A stretch of DNA of 63,311 bases, counting the filler, from Chthonomonadaceae bacterium (GTDB lineage: Bacteria; Armatimonadota; Chthonomonadetes; Chthonomonadales; Chthonomonadaceae): NCBI GenBank assembly GCA_035650735.1. It is 4 parts of 4 records of this genome, joined end to end, with 100 filler letters (N's around TTAATTAATTAA, not from the genome) between each part and the next. Parts side by side here need not be neighbours in the genome. Positions count along the whole stretch, not along the records: positions 21,412 to 49,613 come from DASRGZ010000132.1; 3 more parts are not named here. One strand, 5' to 3'. The position numbers were made by a program, and so were the translations under genes. The notes under the pieces are model-generated. The model was not told the origin of the DNA and made no database searches. It saw nothing but the letters and a program-made list of their open reading frames with translations. Positions 5,689 to 56,211 of this stretch are shown piece after piece; position 1 is the stretch's first letter, and every line of letters starts with the position of its first letter.

Positions 5689-8600
5689 CTACTTTATCGG
5701 GGCGGCGGTCCAGAGTTTGGCGGTGGCGTCGTCGCTGCCTGTCGCCAGGGTGCGACCATCCGCAGAGAATACGAGGCAATGGACGGCCCGGCTGTGCCCT
5801 CTGAGGAGCGCGACTTCCTGCTTGACGGCGGTGCTCCACAATTTCACCACGCTGTCCCGACCGCCCGTTGCCAGCGTCTTCCCGTCGGGGCTAAACGCGA
5901 CAGCGAACACGCCGCCTGCGTGCGCGATAAAACGGAAGGAAATCGGCCTGGCGGCCAGCGTCCATAGCTGGACCGTGCCATCCCCGCTGCCGGTCGCCAG
6001 CAACCGACCATCGTGAGAGAATGCCACGCAAGTCGCCTCGCGGTTATGCCCGGTAAGCGTAGCGAGTACCCGCTTCGTGGCAAGGCTCCATAGCTTGACC
6101 GTGCCGTCGCTGCTCACAGTCGCTAAGACGGTGCCATCGGGCGAAAAGGCCACCGCGTTGACCGGCCCCGAATGTCCTTTGAGGCTGGCCGTTTGCCTGC
6201 GCGTCGCAACATTCCAGAGCTTTAGGACGCCATCCCAACTTCCGGAGGCCAGCCGCTTGCCATCCGGTGCAAAGGCCACCGAGTAAACCCAGGCCGAATG
6301 CCCTGAGAGCGTGGCGATCTCCCGGCGGGCGGCAACGCTCCACAGCTTGATGGTGTTGTCATGACTGCCTGTTGCCAGGATCTTGCCATCAGGAGCAAAG
6401 GCGACCGCATTAACAAAGTCCTGATGACCATTTAAGACGCCAACTTCCCGCCCGGTAACGGTGCTCCAAAGCCGAACGGTATGATCCTGGCTGCCTGTCG
6501 CCAGCAGCTTGCCGTCGGGGGAGAGGGCCACGGACGTTACCGGCTGGGCATGTCCTTTCAGCGTGACGGTTCCCGATTCGCCGACACGCCACAGCTTCAT
6601 CGTGCCATCCCAGCTGCCGGAGGCCAGCCGTTTGCCATCCGGGGAGAAGGCAACGCTCACCACCGAGCCTGTATGTCCCTTGAAGGTCGCCAATTCCTGC
6701 TGGGTGGCCGGGTTCCACAATCTTACGGTGGTGTCCTCGCTGCCTGTCGCCAGGATTTTTCCGTCAGGAGAGTACACGATGGAGTAAATGGAGCTCCTAT
6801 GCCCGCGCAGCGTGCCGACCTCCTGGAAGGTATTCAAGCTCCATAGTTTCACCGTGCTATCCTGGCTCCCAGAAGCCAGGGTCTTGCCATCGGGAGAGAA
6901 CCGGAGGGCGTCCACTTCATACCGGTGTCCCCTAAGGGTGGCGATCTCCACAGCGTCGGCAGACAGCAGTTTCACTATGGTATGTCCCTTAAGTGTGGCA
7001 ATCTCCTGGTGTGTGGCGACATTCAGCAGTTTGACCGTGCCGTCAAAACAGCCGAAGGCCAGCGTCTTACCGTCCGGGGAGAAGGTGACGACATCCACTT
7101 CGCGGCTGTATCCACGATGGCTCCAGAGCTGCTTGAGGGGAGAGAGGCTCCAGATTTGAACAGCGCCATCCCAACTGCCCGTAGCCAGCAGCTTGCCATC
7201 CGGGGAGAACGCCACGGAAAAGACCCAGCCGGAGAATTCCGGGAGCGTGGCGATCTCCCGGTGGGTAGGTACATCCCACAGCTTGACCGTGCTATCCTTA
7301 CTTCCCGTCGCCAGGATTTTGCCGTCGGGAGAAAGGGCCAGGCAATAGATTCCGCTCTTGTGGCTGGTCCGCAGCGTGGTCGCCTGTTTGGAAACGAGGT
7401 TCCAGAATCGAAGGCTGCCGTCCATGCTGCCGGTCACCAGGGTTTTGCCATCGGGAAAGAAGGCGACGGCATGGATGCCCTCAGTATGGCCTTGCGGTGA
7501 GAATAGGTCTTGATGCTTGTCGAGGTAGACAGGGTCAGGCTGCCACAGGCGCCTGTCCTGCGCATGGCCTTGAAATGTGAACAGGTCTTGATGGCACAGC
7601 CGATAGAGATAGCCCCACTCGAAGCCGCGCACGTCTTCCTGCCCGCGAGCCGGTTTTTGCGCTGCCAGCAATTCCTGCACGCGCTCGATATTGTTGGCTT
7701 CCCATGCCTGCTGGGCCAGGTTCATCTGCGCGGCATATTGTTCATGGCGCGCGATCCGCTCTCCCTGCTGGGCGCGGCGGCGCTCCCGCTTTTCCCCTGC
7801 CGCCGCGATGCGCGCCTGCTCTGCTGCCTCGCGCTCCAGGAGGGCGGCTCTGCGCGCGGCCTGGGCATTCTTTTTGGCTTCAGCACTGCTGCGTTGCGCC
7901 GAGCCCGCGCTCATCAGAGCCCTGAACTCTGCCAGCCGGGCTATACGCATCACCGAGCGGGCTTTGTCTCGCTGCTGTTCCGCATCGGCTTTGGCCTGCT
8001 GGGCTTCCTCGGCTTTGCGCGCCGCCAGGTGCGCTGCCTGCGTCTCTGCCAGCCTGGCTTGATTGGCCAGAGCCAGCGCGCGCTCTTTGGCTCTGGCCTG
8101 GAGGAAGCTGCTCAGCGCCAGGCTGCCGATAATAAGAAGGATCACGCCGGAGACGGCAATCGCGCGCAGCAGACCTTTACGGTAGGCGGCACGCTGGCGT
8201 GCCCGCTCCGCATCGGGCATGCTGGAGGCGACCCACTCCCGGTCGAAGACCCGGAAATAGATGCGGTTGCGCACCGCCAGGGCGCCCTGAGCCACCCGGA
8301 TGATCCCCGACAGGCGCAGCAGGCTGATCAGGGGATTGGTTTCATCATCCTTGATATGCTTGCCGCTGCGTACCTTGTCGTAGAGATCCAGCAGACTCGC
8401 CAGATCGGCTTCGCTTCTCAGCAGGCGTTCGCGCACGAACAGGAGGTTGTCGTCCCGTTCGCGCGCCCGCGCGGAGAGGAAGAGCTCGGCGCATAGCCTG
8501 TCTACGTCCGCAGGCGTGTTGGCGTGGGCGTCTTCGGCGACGGCCTGGCAGAGCCGCTGAGTCAGGTAAGGATGCCCGCCCGTCCAGTAAAGGATGCGTT

Positions 8601-29825: not shown

Positions 29826-30977
29826 TTAAAGGGCGACGCGGTACTTCGCTATTGCGGGCTCGTCTACTTCGATGCCAAGCCCCGGCCCCTGCGGAACCTG
29901 CATCGTGCCGTCCGGCTCCAGCGCAATCGGGTTACGGATGACTTCGCGGAGCATGACGTTGTTGGAGACATTATACTCCAGGAACAGGCTGCGCGGCAGG
30001 CAGGCGTTGACGTGCAGGCTCACGGCGGTCAGCAGGTCGGTCAGCCAGGCGTGCGGGGCCATGTCAATCCCGGCGCGCTCTACCTCCCACATGATCTTGC
30101 GCACCTGAGACAGCCCGCCGCACCGACTGATGTCCGGCTGCGCCACATCAATCTTGCCCCGGTGGATGAGGTCGTGAAAGCCCCAGGCCGTCGCTTCCTG
30201 CTCGCCAGCGGCCAGGCGGGTCTTCACGCCGGCCTCCTTGACGCGCGCATACCCTTCGTAGTTTTCGGGGTGCAGGAAGTCCTCCAGCCAGTAGATGTTA
30301 TACGGCTCCAGGTCACGGAGCAGCTCAATGGCGTCATAGGCGCTGCGGTTCACCTTCCAGCCGGGGTCAATGAGCAGGTCCACGTCCGGGCCGATGGCTT
30401 CCCGCGCCGCCCTGACCAGCGCGATATCGCGCTTTCGATCCTGTCCGAAGACGCCCCAGCCGAACTTGATGGCCGTAAAGCCGCGCTCCAGATATGCCTC
30501 ACAGGCGCGCTTCATGGCGTCGGGGGTCGGACGGAAGAGCGTAGAGGCGTAGGCGCGCACGCGATCCCGATAAGCGCCGCCCAGCAGTTTGTAGAGGGGC
30601 CTGCCGATGGCCTTGCCGATGATGTCATGGCAGGCGATATCGAAGCCGGAGAGCACCTGGACGGCCACGCCGCGCCGTCCGTAGTAGATGCTGCCCCGGT
30701 AGACTTTGTCCCAAAGCCGCTCCACGTCGAAGGGGTCTTCGCCGACCACCAGCGTCTTGAGCCCCTCGAACATCTCCATGCCGCTCGGCGGCGCGTGGAC
30801 CGCCGCCACAGCGACATGCGGGGCCGTCTCGACATCGGCCCAGCCGGTAATTCCCTCATCGGTGGAGACCTTGATCAGTAGGCAGCGCTTGATGCCAACC
30901 GGCTCCTCGCTGCCCTCCGGCGGTCGGTTCTCTTGCGGCGTTTCCAGCAGAATTGCCTCGACATCGGTAATTTTCAA
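29826..30977 (-). CDS. Mandelate racemase / muconate lactonizing (enolase superfamily) enzyme
   Basis: DIACHDIIGKA, WLED, GEQE, QPD, PQGPGLGIE. Confidence 0.92.
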   Translation of the reverse strand: MKITDVEAILLETPQENRPPEGSEEPVGIKRCLLIKVSTDEGITGWADVETAPHVAVAAVHAPPSGMEMFEGLKTLVVGEDPFDVERLWDKVYRGSIYYGRRGVAVQVLSGFDIACHDIIGKAIGRPLYKLLGGAYRDRVRAYASTLFRPTPDAMKRACEAYLERGFTAIKFGWGVFGQDRKRDIALVRAAREAIGPDVDLLIDPGWKVNRSAYDAIELLRDLEPYNIYWLEDFLHPENYEGYARVKEAGVKTRLAAGEQEATAWGFHDLIHRGKIDVAQPDISRCGGLSQVRKIMWEVERAGIDMAPHAWLTDLLTAVSLHVNACLPRSLFLEYNVSNNVMLREVIRNPIALEPDGTMQVPQGPGLGIEVDEPAIAKYRVAL

Positions 30978-31134
30978 GCCCTCACCCCCGCCGCCTCTCC
31001 GAAAGCAATGCAGGAAACAACGTACAACCTGCCGAACGTTCTATTATCCGGCCCTATAGGAGATGCGCGTATGCCACTGTCATCGTCGCAAAAGCATGGC
31101 TGCCTTTTCATGCGCCTTAACGGAGAGTAACACA

Positions 31135-31761
31135 ATGTTGAGATCAAGGAAACAGGTGGTTCTCCGGGTGGTATGGCGGTTAGTCGCGTGTATGTTTCTG
31201 GCTTTTCTCGCCATGCTTATCTCTATATCGGCCACAGAAACGGATCCGACATTACTGTACTTTGTTGCCTTTGCGATTAGCTCCATAATGCTGCCGCTCG
31301 CTTGCATCTGGTTCGTGAAGGTGGGCGAAAGAAACTACTCGCTGCCCCTGCGTCTGCTCTTACCATTGGTCTATTTCGGTTTGCTCTTTTCTATACCGAT
31401 GACTGAATGGCCTCTGCGCTTCACCCTGGCTATATATCAACTATCCACGAACGCATCCGAAACCGCCGCCATGATTTTGCTCTGCGCTTCACCCTGGCTA
31501 TATATCAACGCCCTCTACAGCGATTGGTAGATCGAACCCTGGCAGGTTCTACGGTGACCTTTCCACAAAGGATAGGCCCTTTTGTGATTTACAAGACTTC
31601 ACGGGAAGATCCTGGAATAGCCTCCTTGTGGCATAGACTCAAAGGGCCGTTCTTTTTTGGCGTTCTGCTCGCCAAACCAGGAACAACGATTTTTTCCGGG
31701 AGCTTTATGGTGTTGCAACCGTATTAATGGGCAGTGGCTGCTCGTCTCTGATTGGGATTAG
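31135..31761 (+). pseudogene. Membrane protein gene broken by a 68-bp repeat+spacer insertion and a probable second frameshift
   Basis: Three TM helices, then WPLRFTLAIYQ occurs in duplicated DNA; deleting 68 bp restores ...YQRPLQRLVDR...FPQRIGPF. Confidence 0.7.
31412..31509. repeat. Isolated repeat-spacer-repeat unit (30/38/30 bp) with CRISPR-like geometry
   Basis: CTCTGCGCTTCACCCTGGCTATATATCAAC identical at 31412-31441 and 31480-31509. Confidence 0.9.
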
Positions 31762-31901
31762 GTCTCTTCGTGTAGATCAGTAATGCCGCCATAAACACAG
31801 GTACCGGAGGTCGCACAAGTCCCCGCGCTTCGGCAAGAGCCGACAAATTCCGATAGCCTATAGCTAAGCGCCACCTTCCTTGTGCGGCCCCGGAGGGGAT
31901 A

Positions 31902-32726
31902 TTATAGCTGGCTGAGGTCGGGCGAGGGGCCATCCGGGATGGCATCCAGGTAGCGCTGCATATAGACCCGGAGCGCCGGCGGCAGCGAGTCGAGATACCT
32001 CGGCTGGCCTATCCAGGCTTCCTGCCCGCGCTCGTGGACGGCCACAGGCTGCGAGGCCCGCAGGAAGGCATGGTGCATCGTCCAGCGGAAGGCTCCCGTC
32101 GGATTATAGCCCCGGTGCAGCAGGTTGGGATAGTAGAAGACGACATCCCCCGGCTCCATCTCCACCATCATCTGGCCCGGTATATCGCCGACCGGGTTGC
32201 TCTTCAGCGCTTCGCGCTCGGCCTCGGTCGTCGGGCGCAGGTGGCTGCCCGGCACGATGGTCAGGTAGCGGTCGGGAAAGAGCGGCGCGTTGGTCTGTAC
32301 GACGGTTCGAAAGCCGCGCTCCAGGATGGTCACCTGATGCTTCCCTTCTACCGGGGCGATATCGCGATGCCAGGCTTGAATATAGGGCTTGCCGTCCCCG
32401 CCCGCCAGCATCCCGAACAGGCTATAGCGCACCGGAGCGCCTAAAATCTGTTCGCAGATTGGGAAGAACGGACCGTTTACCAGCGAGTGAGTGAAAGCCG
32501 GACGGATAGTTTGCGGGCGCAGCAGCGAGCCGAGGCGTTCGGGAACGCGCTTTTCCTGATTGATCCAGGGAATTTCCGGCCCTTCGCCTCTGGCCGAACG
32601 CTCGACCAGATCCCGAATATCGGCCTTCAGCGCGTCTAGATCGGCCTGCGGGACGATGCCCCGCTTGATGAGATAGCCATCACGCCGGTACTGTGCTCTC
32701 TCCTCGTCGGTAAGCGTGTAATCCAT
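31902..32726 (-). CDS. Phytanoyl-CoA dioxygenase (PhyH) family Fe/2OG oxygenase
   Basis: WHRD, VPGSH, LLHRG. Confidence 0.88.
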   Translation of the reverse strand: MDYTLTDEERAQYRRDGYLIKRGIVPQADLDALKADIRDLVERSARGEGPEIPWINQEKRVPERLGSLLRPQTIRPAFTHSLVNGPFFPICEQILGAPVRYSLFGMLAGGDGKPYIQAWHRDIAPVEGKHQVTILERGFRTVVQTNAPLFPDRYLTIVPGSHLRPTTEAEREALKSNPVGDIPGQMMVEMEPGDVVFYYPNLLHRGYNPTGAFRWTMHHAFLRASQPVAVHERGQEAWIGQPRYLDSLPPALRVYMQRYLDAIPDGPSPDLSQL

Positions 32727-45299: not shown

Positions 45300-46661
45300 T
45301 CACGTTCTGGCTTCCCTCCAGACCGGCAATGCGGCGATGTTGAGATGCCGCGCCCCATCGAGCGGCAGCGCGGAGGGGCCGACAGAGGGGAAATCAGCAG
45401 GCGCTTCCATCTGTACGGTCTGTACGGCGGCGCTGTCTCCGACGATGTCCGTCGGCTCCTGTGCCCGGCCCGCGATGGTGTTGCCCGCGAAGTAGATGCC
45501 TGTACAGCCGGCGGCGACGGAGAGTGCCGGGCCTTTGCCCGGCGCAAACGTGTTGTCCAGGATGGCGATGTTATGCAGGCCGCCTGCAATGCAGATCTCA
45601 TATTCGGCGTCGCCGCGACGAGCCGTCGTGCGGCCAGGTACGCCCCGGTGAATGCGTGCAATGCCGGTCTCCTGTTCGGCGGCGCCGCGACAGTTGGGGC
45701 CGATAGTGTTGGCTTCGATCCGTATCCTGTCGCCGCCTTGCACCGCGGGACGCCGAAAGGCGATGCCCTGCAATTGGTTGCCGACGATCCGGTTCCCGCG
45801 AATCAGATGATCCGTATCCCGCTCCCCGATGGATATGCCCGCCGCGCCGTTGGCTTCCAGCCGGTTCTCCGCGCAGATCGAGTGCGTGGTGCGCAGGCAG
45901 TAGAAGACGCCGAAGCCGCCGTTGTCATGAACCGCGTTGCCCTCCATGACGTAGCGCACCGAGCCGCTGCCGGGATGCAGGCCGCTTCCGGTGTTGTCGT
46001 GAAGGTAGCAGCGGCGGATAAGAATGTCGGCGCACTGCTGGAAACTGATCGCGTCCCCGTTGTAATGCCGCACCTCGATGCCTTCCAGCCGCACGCGCCG
46101 GCACTGAAGCAGAAACACGCCCCCACCCCGGCAGCCGTTGAGCGCGCGCGTCTCCTCCGGGTTGCCGTCGAGCGTGAGGTTTTCCACCGCTGCCTCCGCA
46201 ACGTTCCAGCCCTCAATCAGCGGGAACAGGCTCGTCACCCGCCCATTGTGCGAGGGATGGTAATCGTGGTTGAGCATCCGATCAATAAAGAAGAGGTCCC
46301 CCTGACGCGCGATGATCGTGGCTACCGTGTCATAGAAGCCGTTCGAGTGGTCGTCGTGGATATGGACGCCCATGCCGACGCGGAACGTCTCCGGCTCGGT
46401 CACAGTGAACTCGTAATGGCCGTAGCCGATATAGTCGAGCAGGGGGCTGGTGACGCTGGGAATCTTTTGCAGCACCGTCCCCGGCTCCCCCACCAAGCGC
46501 ACTCCGTTGCGCAGATGTAGCGCATCCTGCATCCGGTAGGTGCCCGCCGGGATCTCCACGACGCCACCTCCGGCCTCTGCGACCGCATCCACCGCCCGCT
46601 GGAGGCTCTCGTTCGTTCTGTCCTGGTCGTGCCGGACATTTACGGTAATTCCTTTGCTCAT
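45300..46661 (-). CDS. Right-handed parallel beta-helix protein (pectin lyase-like)
   Basis: LQRAVD..GGGVVEIPAGTY; repeated N-x-x-x-G-(I/V) coils. Confidence 0.85.
   Translation of the reverse strand: MSKGITVNVRHDQDRTNESLQRAVDAVAEAGGGVVEIPAGTYRMQDALHLRNGVRLVGEPGTVLQKIPSVTSPLLDYIGYGHYEFTVTEPETFRVGMGVHIHDDHSNGFYDTVATIIARQGDLFFIDRMLNHDYHPSHNGRVTSLFPLIEGWNVAEAAVENLTLDGNPEETRALNGCRGGGVFLLQCRRVRLEGIEVRHYNGDAISFQQCADILIRRCYLHDNTGSGLHPGSGSVRYVMEGNAVHDNGGFGVFYCLRTTHSICAENRLEANGAAGISIGERDTDHLIRGNRIVGNQLQGIAFRRPAVQGGDRIRIEANTIGPNCRGAAEQETGIARIHRGVPGRTTARRGDAEYEICIAGGLHNIAILDNTFAPGKGPALSVAAGCTGIYFAGNTIAGRAQEPTDIVGDSAAVQTVQMEAPADFPSVGPSALPLDGARHLNIAALPVWREART
45585..45691. repeat. In-frame repeat-spacer-repeat unit (35/37/35 bp)
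   Basis: 45585-45619 and 45657-45691 match at 30/35 positions. Confidence 0.8.
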
Positions 46662-46724: not shown

Positions 46725-47180
46725 CCCGGCCCTAAAGGACCGGGCTGCGGACGGCAAGCCCCATAAATGGGGCTGCGCAGGGTGGATCGGTTCCTACCAA
46801 AGGCAAAGGAATCCACGCGCTCCGCCTGGAGAGCCTCTCGCAGAGGCTAACCAACCTCTCGTAGCCCGCTGATGATCCTTGCCCTTCTGAATCGGTCCTT
46901 GCCCGCGTAGGTGTCGCTAGGCGGAGGCAGGGGCCGTAACCCTGCCGACCCTTGCCGTCCATTGCAGGCCCGACCCTGGCAGTCAACCTTAAGCGCCGCT
47001 TCTACCAGGCCGAGATAATATCCTTGCCGTCCATTGCAGGCCCGCCCCTTGCCGTCAACGGGCCGCAGGCCCCACAGCGGCAGGGTTTAGCCTGCCGGCA
47101 AAGCCAGACGTTACCGATTTAGGTTGTCAAAGGTCATCAGGGGGCTTGCCGTCCGCAGCCCACTCGTTTACGGGTGGGCT
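46725..47180. repeat. Nested REP/MITE-like cluster
   Basis: GGGCTGCGGACGGCAAGCCCC inverted at 46742 and 47141; imperfect 28-bp IR at 46869 and 47113-47140; internal CCTTGCCGTC repeats. Confidence 0.75.
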
Positions 47181-55919: not shown

Positions 55920-56211
55920 GCGGGCGAATGAATTCGCGGCAACAAAGGCACGAAGTCGCCCTGCGGCGACTGCCCTCACCCCCGGCCCTTTGTGTAGGGT
56001 GTAGGGTATAGGGTGTAGGGTGTAGGGTATAGGGTGTAGGGTGTAGGGTATAGGGTGTAGGGGGTAGGGGGTAGGGTGTAGGGGGTAGGGCCGCCCTCAT
56101 CCCCGGCCCTTCTCCCTTGCAGGGAGAGGGGAGAGCAGAAGCCGGATCACTCCCTTCCCTGGGAGGGTCGCTAGGTGTCGCAAGGCGGAGGCAGGGGCCG
56201 TAACCCTGCCG
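55920..56211. repeat. REP cluster containing a 14-unit heptamer tandem repeat (55994-56090)
   Basis: (G/A)TAGGG(T/G) x14 between two GCCCTCA(C/T)CCCCGGCCCTT copies; contig ends inside a copy of the repeat seen at 46911. Confidence 0.9.

Follow-up and report, generated by a model that had tools for sequence, protein, structure and literature searches.

The 63,311-nt stretch of Chthonomonadaceae DNA analysed here (the window) is made up of four contigs of assembly GCA_035650735.1 (G000; 6,519,891 bases in 224 contigs, 97.64% complete) joined by runs of N. One of these, C132, spans positions 21412-49613 and carries a small gene that is broken by a repeat-spacer-repeat unit at 31412-31509, a candidate for natural off-target spacer integration by Cas1-Cas2, the adaptation proteins of CRISPR systems. 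The unit begins with a 30-nt sequence, CTCTGCGCTTCACCCTGGCTATATATCAAC (31412-31441), which codes for the residues ...PLRFTLAIYQ of the host gene. This is followed by an unrelated 38-nt sequence, TATCCACGAACGCATCCGAAACCGCCGCCATGATTTTG (31442-31479), and by a second, identical copy of the 30-mer (31480-31509). The N-terminal part of the gene lies on the plus strand at 31135-31441, from which the frame runs into the 38-mer and stops at 31530. The C-terminal part, on the same strand at 31510-31727, has been put out of frame by the insertion of 68 nt (2 mod 3), which is the difference in register between the open reading frame (ORF) at 31063/31135-31530 and the ORF that ends at 31727. The gene is flanked by an enolase-superfamily gene and PhyH-family genes and lies in a patch of 50% GC in a genome of 63% GC.

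The exact 30/38/30 structure reported in the preliminary description of this DNA was confirmed. With up to three mismatches allowed, the 30-mer did not occur in any of 100 dinucleotide-preserving shuffles of the window. Across the whole assembly the 30-mer is found at these two places only and the 38-mer at this one only. The region 31100-31800 is covered with no differences by one Logan contig in each of four runs from three studies. These runs are soil and mine metagenomes, any of which may be the source sample of the assembly, and they were compared at the contig level, which is blind to a minority allele. The identical unit is also present in a 37-kb Joint Genome Institute (JGI) metagenome contig, Ga0209810_1001373. 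The check for independent assemblies spanning the unit therefore left it unchanged, and the unit is real DNA and not an artefact.

The state of the gene before the insertion is preserved in the protein record. Three matches came out of an exhaustive phmmer search, which covered 1.84 billion representative proteins. The first, P0001 (131 aa), is the product of the interrupted gene. The second, P0002 (174 aa), reads ...MTEWPLRFTLAIYQRPLQRLVDR... to its end and is the exact product of a site with one repeat and without the spacer; the 30-mer is represented in it as a single copy, and its C-terminal 72 residues are identical to those encoded downstream of the unit. The third, P0003 (209 aa), is a distant homologue (37% identity over 110 aa, E 1e-25) that is collinear across the junction. 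Because P0002 matches the empty site and P0003 is unbroken across the junction, the 30-mer is duplicated host coding sequence and the unit is an insertion. The empty allele is thus on record, as protein only. Two earlier proposals, that the frame is restored when one repeat is removed together with the spacer and that the repeat is a duplication of host sequence, are borne out by these proteins. The DNA of 31000-31900 gave no match in 40 relatives, and a word-indexed protein search among longer proteins found no homologue of the interrupted gene. Its intact product is hydrophobic and belongs to no Pfam family. The claim that a gene was knocked out stands for the frameshift, with the correction that the ‘gene’ is an ORF of 174 aa without a family, set in the patch of 50% GC.

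The 38-nt spacer resembles part of a transposon-associated gene. Frame +2 reads IHERIRNRRHDF, and a back-translated pattern of this peptide, with up to three mismatches, was found in 27 genomes among 400 others from the phylum, many of which have more than one copy; the reversed control gave none. Contig C5 of a genome of the same family (G392) encodes a 372-aa ORF with the exact 12-residue peptide. The profile matches of this ORF are OrfB_IS605 (86.6 bits), Cas12f1-like_TNB (81.6 bits) and HTH_OrfB_IS605, and its DNA is identical to the spacer at 35 of 38 nt. As judged by sequence, the spacer derives from a tnpB of the IS200/IS605 type, in agreement with the TnpB-like character first ascribed to it. 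The donor gene itself is not in the assembly; the best TnpB encoded there is only 38% identical, and the spacer is the sole DNA trace of the donor. A search with the 38-mer had been expected to return a donor tnpB copy together with its protospacer adjacent motif (PAM), and this expectation failed. No donor was found in the organism's own genome or in viral contigs, metagenome contigs returned only the unit itself, a 24-mer core query found nothing in genome contigs, and plasmids and phages gave partial matches at chance level only (E >= 0.1).

A genome scan for similar units, which had also been proposed, placed this insertion in a large family. We searched for 28-nt windows that recur at any given distance between 40 and 300 nt, with the true CRISPR array and places with multiple periods excluded. 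At distances of 64-70 nt there were 54 perfect pairs and 35 with one to three mismatches. A distance of 61 nt gave five of each, and 72-75 nt gave 15 perfect pairs and 41 with one to three mismatches, the latter count being inflated because many belong to a multi-copy element resembling repetitive extragenic palindromes (REP) or miniature inverted-repeat transposable elements (MITE). All other distances, about 240 of them, together held about 25 perfect pairs, or ~0.1 per spacing. Three size classes were defined after demanding that the repeat be unique. Class B30 holds 54 units on 46 contigs with a period of 64-70 nt (mode 67-68) and repeats of 29 nt (nine units), 30 nt (25), 31 nt (12), 32 nt (seven) or 33 nt (one). 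These lengths fit a true duplication of 30 nt with chance extension in ~45 units and of 29 nt in nine. Class C37 contains 15 units (repeat 35-40 nt, spacer 34-40 nt, period 70-78 nt) and class E28 contains six (repeat 28-29 nt, spacer 32-33 nt, period 61 nt).

The B30 spacers share no common termini (<=0.3 bit per position) and are mutually unrelated except for two from heptamer-repeat tracts, so the units are not the footprints of one element. The position of the units relative to genes was evaluated with a home-made codon log-odds test, which was used in place of a phase test on GC at third codon positions, where the contrast was too weak; the lengths of open frames with and without the units were ambiguous at 63% GC. 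Both 240-nt flanks were confidently coding in two of 52 B30 units, compared with 39.5% of 3000 randomly drawn sites, so that typical genes hold fewer scars than expected, via either target preference or selection. In both units with coding flanks the reading frames agree only once the unit is removed. Pfam searches confirm these same two units, each of which splits a domain precisely at the unit, DUF2961 at C167:27172 (profile positions 1-144 and 119-235) and DUF362 at C136:1460 (1-83 and 88-199). At C224:43547 a unique 29/30-mer is present three times around two spacers, which indicates that this ectopic unit was used twice.

The window contains no cas genes, as had been noted, and the only Cas1 and Cas2 matches of the assembly lie outside it, on contig C93. 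The Cas1 matches the type I-B model TIGR03641 with 431 bits. The same locus encodes Cas4, Cas3, Cas5b and Cas7/Cst2, with a csm1-4 module between cas4 and cas1, and an 80-repeat array adjoins cas2. The repeat of this array is 29 nt long (transcribed strand CTTTAATCGAACCAGCGTGGAATTGAAAC), its spacers are mostly of 36 nt (34 spacers), 37 nt (24) or 38 nt (14), and its period is 65-67 nt with a mean of 65.7. The spacer lengths of the unit at 31412-31509 and of the array agree (36-38 nt), and the GC content of unit spacers (0.609) is close to that of array spacers (0.614). The proposal to look for cas1, cas2 and a comparable array is thus answered in part: cas1, cas2, cas4 and spacers of 36-38 nt are all present, while the resident repeat is 29 nt and not 30 (29/36-38/65-67 for repeat, spacer and period, against 30/38/68 for the unit). 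The whole array had no match among phages and plasmids, and because of this the canonical PAM is underivable from it.

Some further features of the resident system were noted. An IS21 element (istA and istB, C93:337-2393) abuts the leader-distal end of the array. Seven solitary canonical I-B repeats with one to five mismatches and no spacers are found at C89:7863, C19:48197, C166:40669, C152:3580, C162:11576, C3:8092 and C121:514; these may be collapsed arrays or repeat-like elements. In the Cas1 protein (C93:8250-9428, L007), the N- and C-terminal domains are separated by a ~65-aa insert that is acidic and of low complexity. We considered this insert as a cause of integration errors and rejected it, since the lengths of homologues indicate that it is clade-wide: the best 120 Cas1 homologues listed, some of them named Armatimonadetes or Capsulimonas, are 383-612 aa long and nearly all 383-445 aa.

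The origins of the ectopic spacers carry signs of CRISPR adaptation. Of the 54 B30 spacers, six match one other place in the assembly uniquely and over their full length, and two more match heptamer tracts, while none of the 79 array spacers has a full-length self match (best partial match 19 nt). This difference, 8/54 against 0/79, is expected if self-targeting spacers are lethal in an expressed array and do no harm in ectopic units that are silent. A 5'-CCG flank is present at four of the six self-protospacers. Contig C15 (43.5 kb) is the source of three of the six, and of one spacer of the period-61 class; among the others, one lies on the CRISPR-cas contig and one on C109. C15 may be a hot spot for spacer capture. 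It was rejected as a phage or plasmid, as it is an ordinary chromosomal contig with housekeeping genes and two restriction-modification systems, one EcoRV-like and one BsoBI-like. Heptamer tandem repeats of the GGGTGTA/GGGTATA type are common in this genome, occurring in the window at 55990-56030 (C137) and at many contig ends; the units that captured such tracts as spacers are those at C204:643 and C139:26387.

The targets of integration were also compared with the resident repeat. B30 targets are AT-richer than random 30-mers (GC 0.547 and 0.630, respectively). They match the canonical repeat at 11.70 of 29 positions on average, compared with 10.90 for GC-matched 30-mers (z 3.9) and 10.96 (sd 0.28) when 200 shuffled repeats served as control. 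The target of the unit at 31412-31509, read on the minus strand, matches at 14 of 29 positions, including CCAG-GTG, a level reached by 137 of 5000 random 30-mers. A search by expectation-maximization for a strand-oriented target motif gave a weak signal with a flawed control, and we draw no claim from it.

Taken together, the data make it very probable that the unit at 31412-31509 is a natural off-target Cas1-Cas2 spacer integration, or ‘neo-CRISPR’, in which a tnpB-derived spacer has frameshifted a small gene. We infer that the integrase, a Cas1-Cas2 and most likely the type I-B Cas1-Cas2(-Cas4) resident on C93, would have taken up a 38-nt fragment from the tnpB of an IS200/IS605-type element. 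The integrase would then have attacked two phosphodiesters 30 bp apart on opposite strands, at an AT-richer and weakly repeat-like site inside what may be a small membrane-protein gene. Repair of the gaps would have left a copy of the 30-bp target at either end of the insert. The resulting 68-nt insertion shifts the frame of the gene. The order of these steps is modelled on established knowledge of Cas1-Cas2. Lacking both a leader and the canonical repeat, the unit probably confers no immunity.

Several observations weigh against this interpretation. The PAM of this unit is unreadable because the exact donor is absent from the collections searched, and the tnpB copy in G392 flanks the matching stretch with ATG or GAA and not with CCG. 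The CCG flank itself rests on four of six cases, or four of seven when one unit with a single mismatch is included. The likeness of the targets to the canonical repeat is weak, and k-mer enrichment across the targets gave no clean motif. No cas1 or array that matches classes C37 and E28 is present in the assembly, which is 97.6% complete. The dimensions are also slightly off: the duplication is 30 nt in ~83% of the units, whose mean period is 67.3, against 29 nt and 65.7 in the C93 array, and the units are fitted better by the array of G012, a relative (182 repeats, each of 30 nt; mean period 67.4), than by the resident array. Finally, two 400-kb samples of the G012 chromosome contained no isolated B30-class units, where 6.6 were predicted from the density of 8.3 per Mb found here. 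Since the Cas1 of G012 is 74% identical to that of C93, the clade of the integrase alone does not explain the number of units in this genome.

The discrepancy in dimensions leaves two origins for the scars: either the integrase of C93 reverts to a 30-bp spacing of its own when it is off its anchor motifs, or another I-B system made them. The second of these, off-target integration by a different, I-B-like Cas1-Cas2 with a 30-nt repeat that is now lost, resides on a plasmid or lies outside the bin, is unlikely, though the likeliest of the alternatives. It would account for the equality of the units with the G012 array and for the two classes that lack a cognate cas1, and an assembly in 224 contigs leaves room for a missed locus. 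Set against it, a single Cas1 locus was found and this belongs to the same clade as that of G012; without the internal anchor motifs of the repeat, the resident enzyme may itself default to 30 bp; and the seven solitary near-canonical repeats together with the 80-repeat array point to a long history of the resident system.

A process unrelated to CRISPR, such as the excision of transposons that leave footprints with a very long duplication, or another integrase or repair pathway with a 30-bp stagger, is far less plausible. Insertion sequences (IS) and casposons enter by staggered cuts whose repair duplicates the target; these are kilobase-sized elements with terminal repeats and a transposase, and their target duplications are ~2-15 bp. 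The unit resembles them in that the target is duplicated. It differs in that 30 bp are duplicated around an insert of only 38 nt, sizes outside those of an IS or transposon, with no terminal repeats and no transposase adjoining the unit, whose neighbours are the enolase-superfamily and PhyH genes. Inverted repeats were likewise not reported in 30400-32600 apart from one distant 14-nt pair. Though this unit is not directly tied to Cas1, has no readable PAM and is accompanied by two size classes without a cognate cas1, all of which a process of another kind could accommodate, the inserts are mutually unrelated with no common terminal sequence, and their lengths and GC content, like the length of the duplication, follow CRISPR I-B geometry.

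That the unit is a genuine orphan mini-CRISPR array of two repeats and one spacer, overlapping an ORF by chance, has the repeat-spacer-repeat form and CRISPR-like sizes in its favour and is nevertheless barely credible. The repeat is unique to the site and has only 14 of 29 positions in common with the canonical repeat. It belongs to the host coding sequence, occurs a single time in the empty allele, which contradicts an orphan array, and is conserved as protein in P0003. Moreover, 30900-32000 gave no Rfam match, and there is neither a leader nor a cas gene in the window. An assembly or sequencing artefact, suggested by a repeat length of 30 that equals k-1 for assemblers run at k = 31, can be dismissed almost outright given that the assembly, the Logan contigs and the JGI contig agree base for base, that the interrupted product is on record as P0001, and that the size classes track CRISPR geometry and not assembler k values.

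Most demonstrations of off-target spacer integration come from E. coli with overexpressed Cas1-Cas2 and from in vitro work. Nivala, Shipman and Church reportedly described non-canonical spacer integration and neo-CRISPR loci in the E. coli type I-E system in 2018 (Nat Microbiol 3:310). The preprint 10.1101/148544 credits Nivala et al. 2018 with E. coli neo-CRISPR arrays spawned by off-target integration when the system was artificially up-regulated, and with circumstantial evidence for natural events in two other species. The units described here are like those of E. coli in having a spacer-sized insert, a repeat-length duplication of an ordinary target, and the capacity of ectopic units to gain spacers, as at C224:43547. 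They are unlike them in that they arose naturally and with no overexpression, in their I-B geometry of 30 + 36-38 nt in place of 28 + 33, and in their number, with at least 54 perfect units in one wild genome and one of them with both alleles on record.

Two other systems allow a closer comparison of target choice. Pyrococcus furiosus Cas1-Cas2 integrates in vitro at non-CRISPR sites with features of the repeat (PMC6698737). The sites in both systems are partly repeat-like, our targets being AT-richer and slightly similar to the repeat; the substrates there were plasmids in vitro, while the scars here are fixed or polymorphic in a chromosome and have no clear motif. For type I-B, motif-anchored repeat rulers are reported for Haloarcula hispanica adaptation (PMC4872114). 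That system, as reported, and the resident one agree in Cas1 subtype (TIGR03641 here), in a repeat of ~30 nt, in spacers in the mid-30s and in the presence of Cas4. They differ in that the integrations described here are not at a leader-repeat junction, and in that 30 nt are duplicated although the resident repeat is 29 nt. Full-text searches of a library of open-access papers brought up none that, judged by its title or the opening of its abstract, reports dozens of natural ectopic units in one genome. The kind of event is already known; what this case adds is the scale, the record of both alleles, and the share of self-derived sequence in ectopic as opposed to array spacers.

Considering the family as a whole, we lean, with some reserve, towards a recent burst of integrase errors in this lineage, comprising more than 50 perfect ectopic insertions and dozens of decaying ones, with at least one still polymorphic; such errors would break genes and could seed new arrays, as at C224. 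As part of the same tentative view, the units would keep an unfiltered sample of captured DNA because they are not expressed as CRISPR RNA. If this is correct, off-target adaptation in nature is a mutational force that can be measured and from which new CRISPR loci arise. The genome offers ~54 fresh events with exact junctions, one with its filled and empty alleles on record, and an internal comparison in which ectopic spacers are 15% self-derived and array spacers 0%. From such natural data one can measure how adaptation filters self from non-self and which targets a type I-B integrase prefers, and CRISPR adaptation can be viewed as a gene-disrupting mutagen. The observations bear on how frequently off-target integration occurs in nature, on its cost and on the seeding of new arrays.

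The two smaller size classes lie outside the main family. Examples of C37, all outside the window, are found at C17:92631, C198:74393, C206:60055, C38:40468 and C161:26022. Isolated units of class E28 are located at C1:10060, C65:6648, C67:9736 and C135:1248. Their dimensions of 28-29/32-33 nt are those of type I-E systems, and no I-E cas genes were found in the assembly. The unit at C135:1248 lies 346 nt from a B30 unit, and the spacers of both come from contig C15. The remaining two of the six E28 units form a three-repeat, I-E-like mini-array at C109:6232-6381 (L014) with the repeat CTAGTTCCCCCCGCGCGTGGGGGAATAG. It is bounded by the inverted repeats GGTTTCTTTAGGGTTCTAAGG and CCTTAGAACCCTAAAGAAACC and is followed by a degenerate fourth repeat. 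One of its spacers matches the organism's own contig C91 at 32 of 32 positions, and no cas gene was recognised nearby.

Two other sites in the window, at 45585 and 7486, had been offered as support for recurrent adaptation-driven remodelling and did not hold up as clean units. The first, at 45582-45691, is a 38-nt repeat with 84% identity and a period of 72, and the second, at 7476-7593, is a 40-nt repeat with 78% identity and a period of 78. Further periodicities of 69-74 nt occur near both. Each may be a repeat within a protein or an old scar belonging to the 36-40-nt class. A different element occupies 46947-47050 (C132:25537) and recurs at 13-17 similar loci across the genome. It is REP/MITE-like, with TGCAAGGGTCGGGCCTGCAAT-type direct repeats of 34-40 nt and a period of 72-73.

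The ends of contigs C4, C62, C65, C106, C175 and C208 carry a 28-nt repeat that contains a palindrome, CTGCTGCCTACGCAGGCAGAGAGTTTCG, at a period of 61 nt. Copies with two mismatches lie inside C17, C59, C149 and C224, and matches with three to five mismatches occur in other contigs. We examined this repeat as a second CRISPR array and rejected it on the grounds that its ‘spacer’ also exists in many copies and that the genes around the repeat are housekeeping genes; it is a dispersed element at which the assembly breaks.

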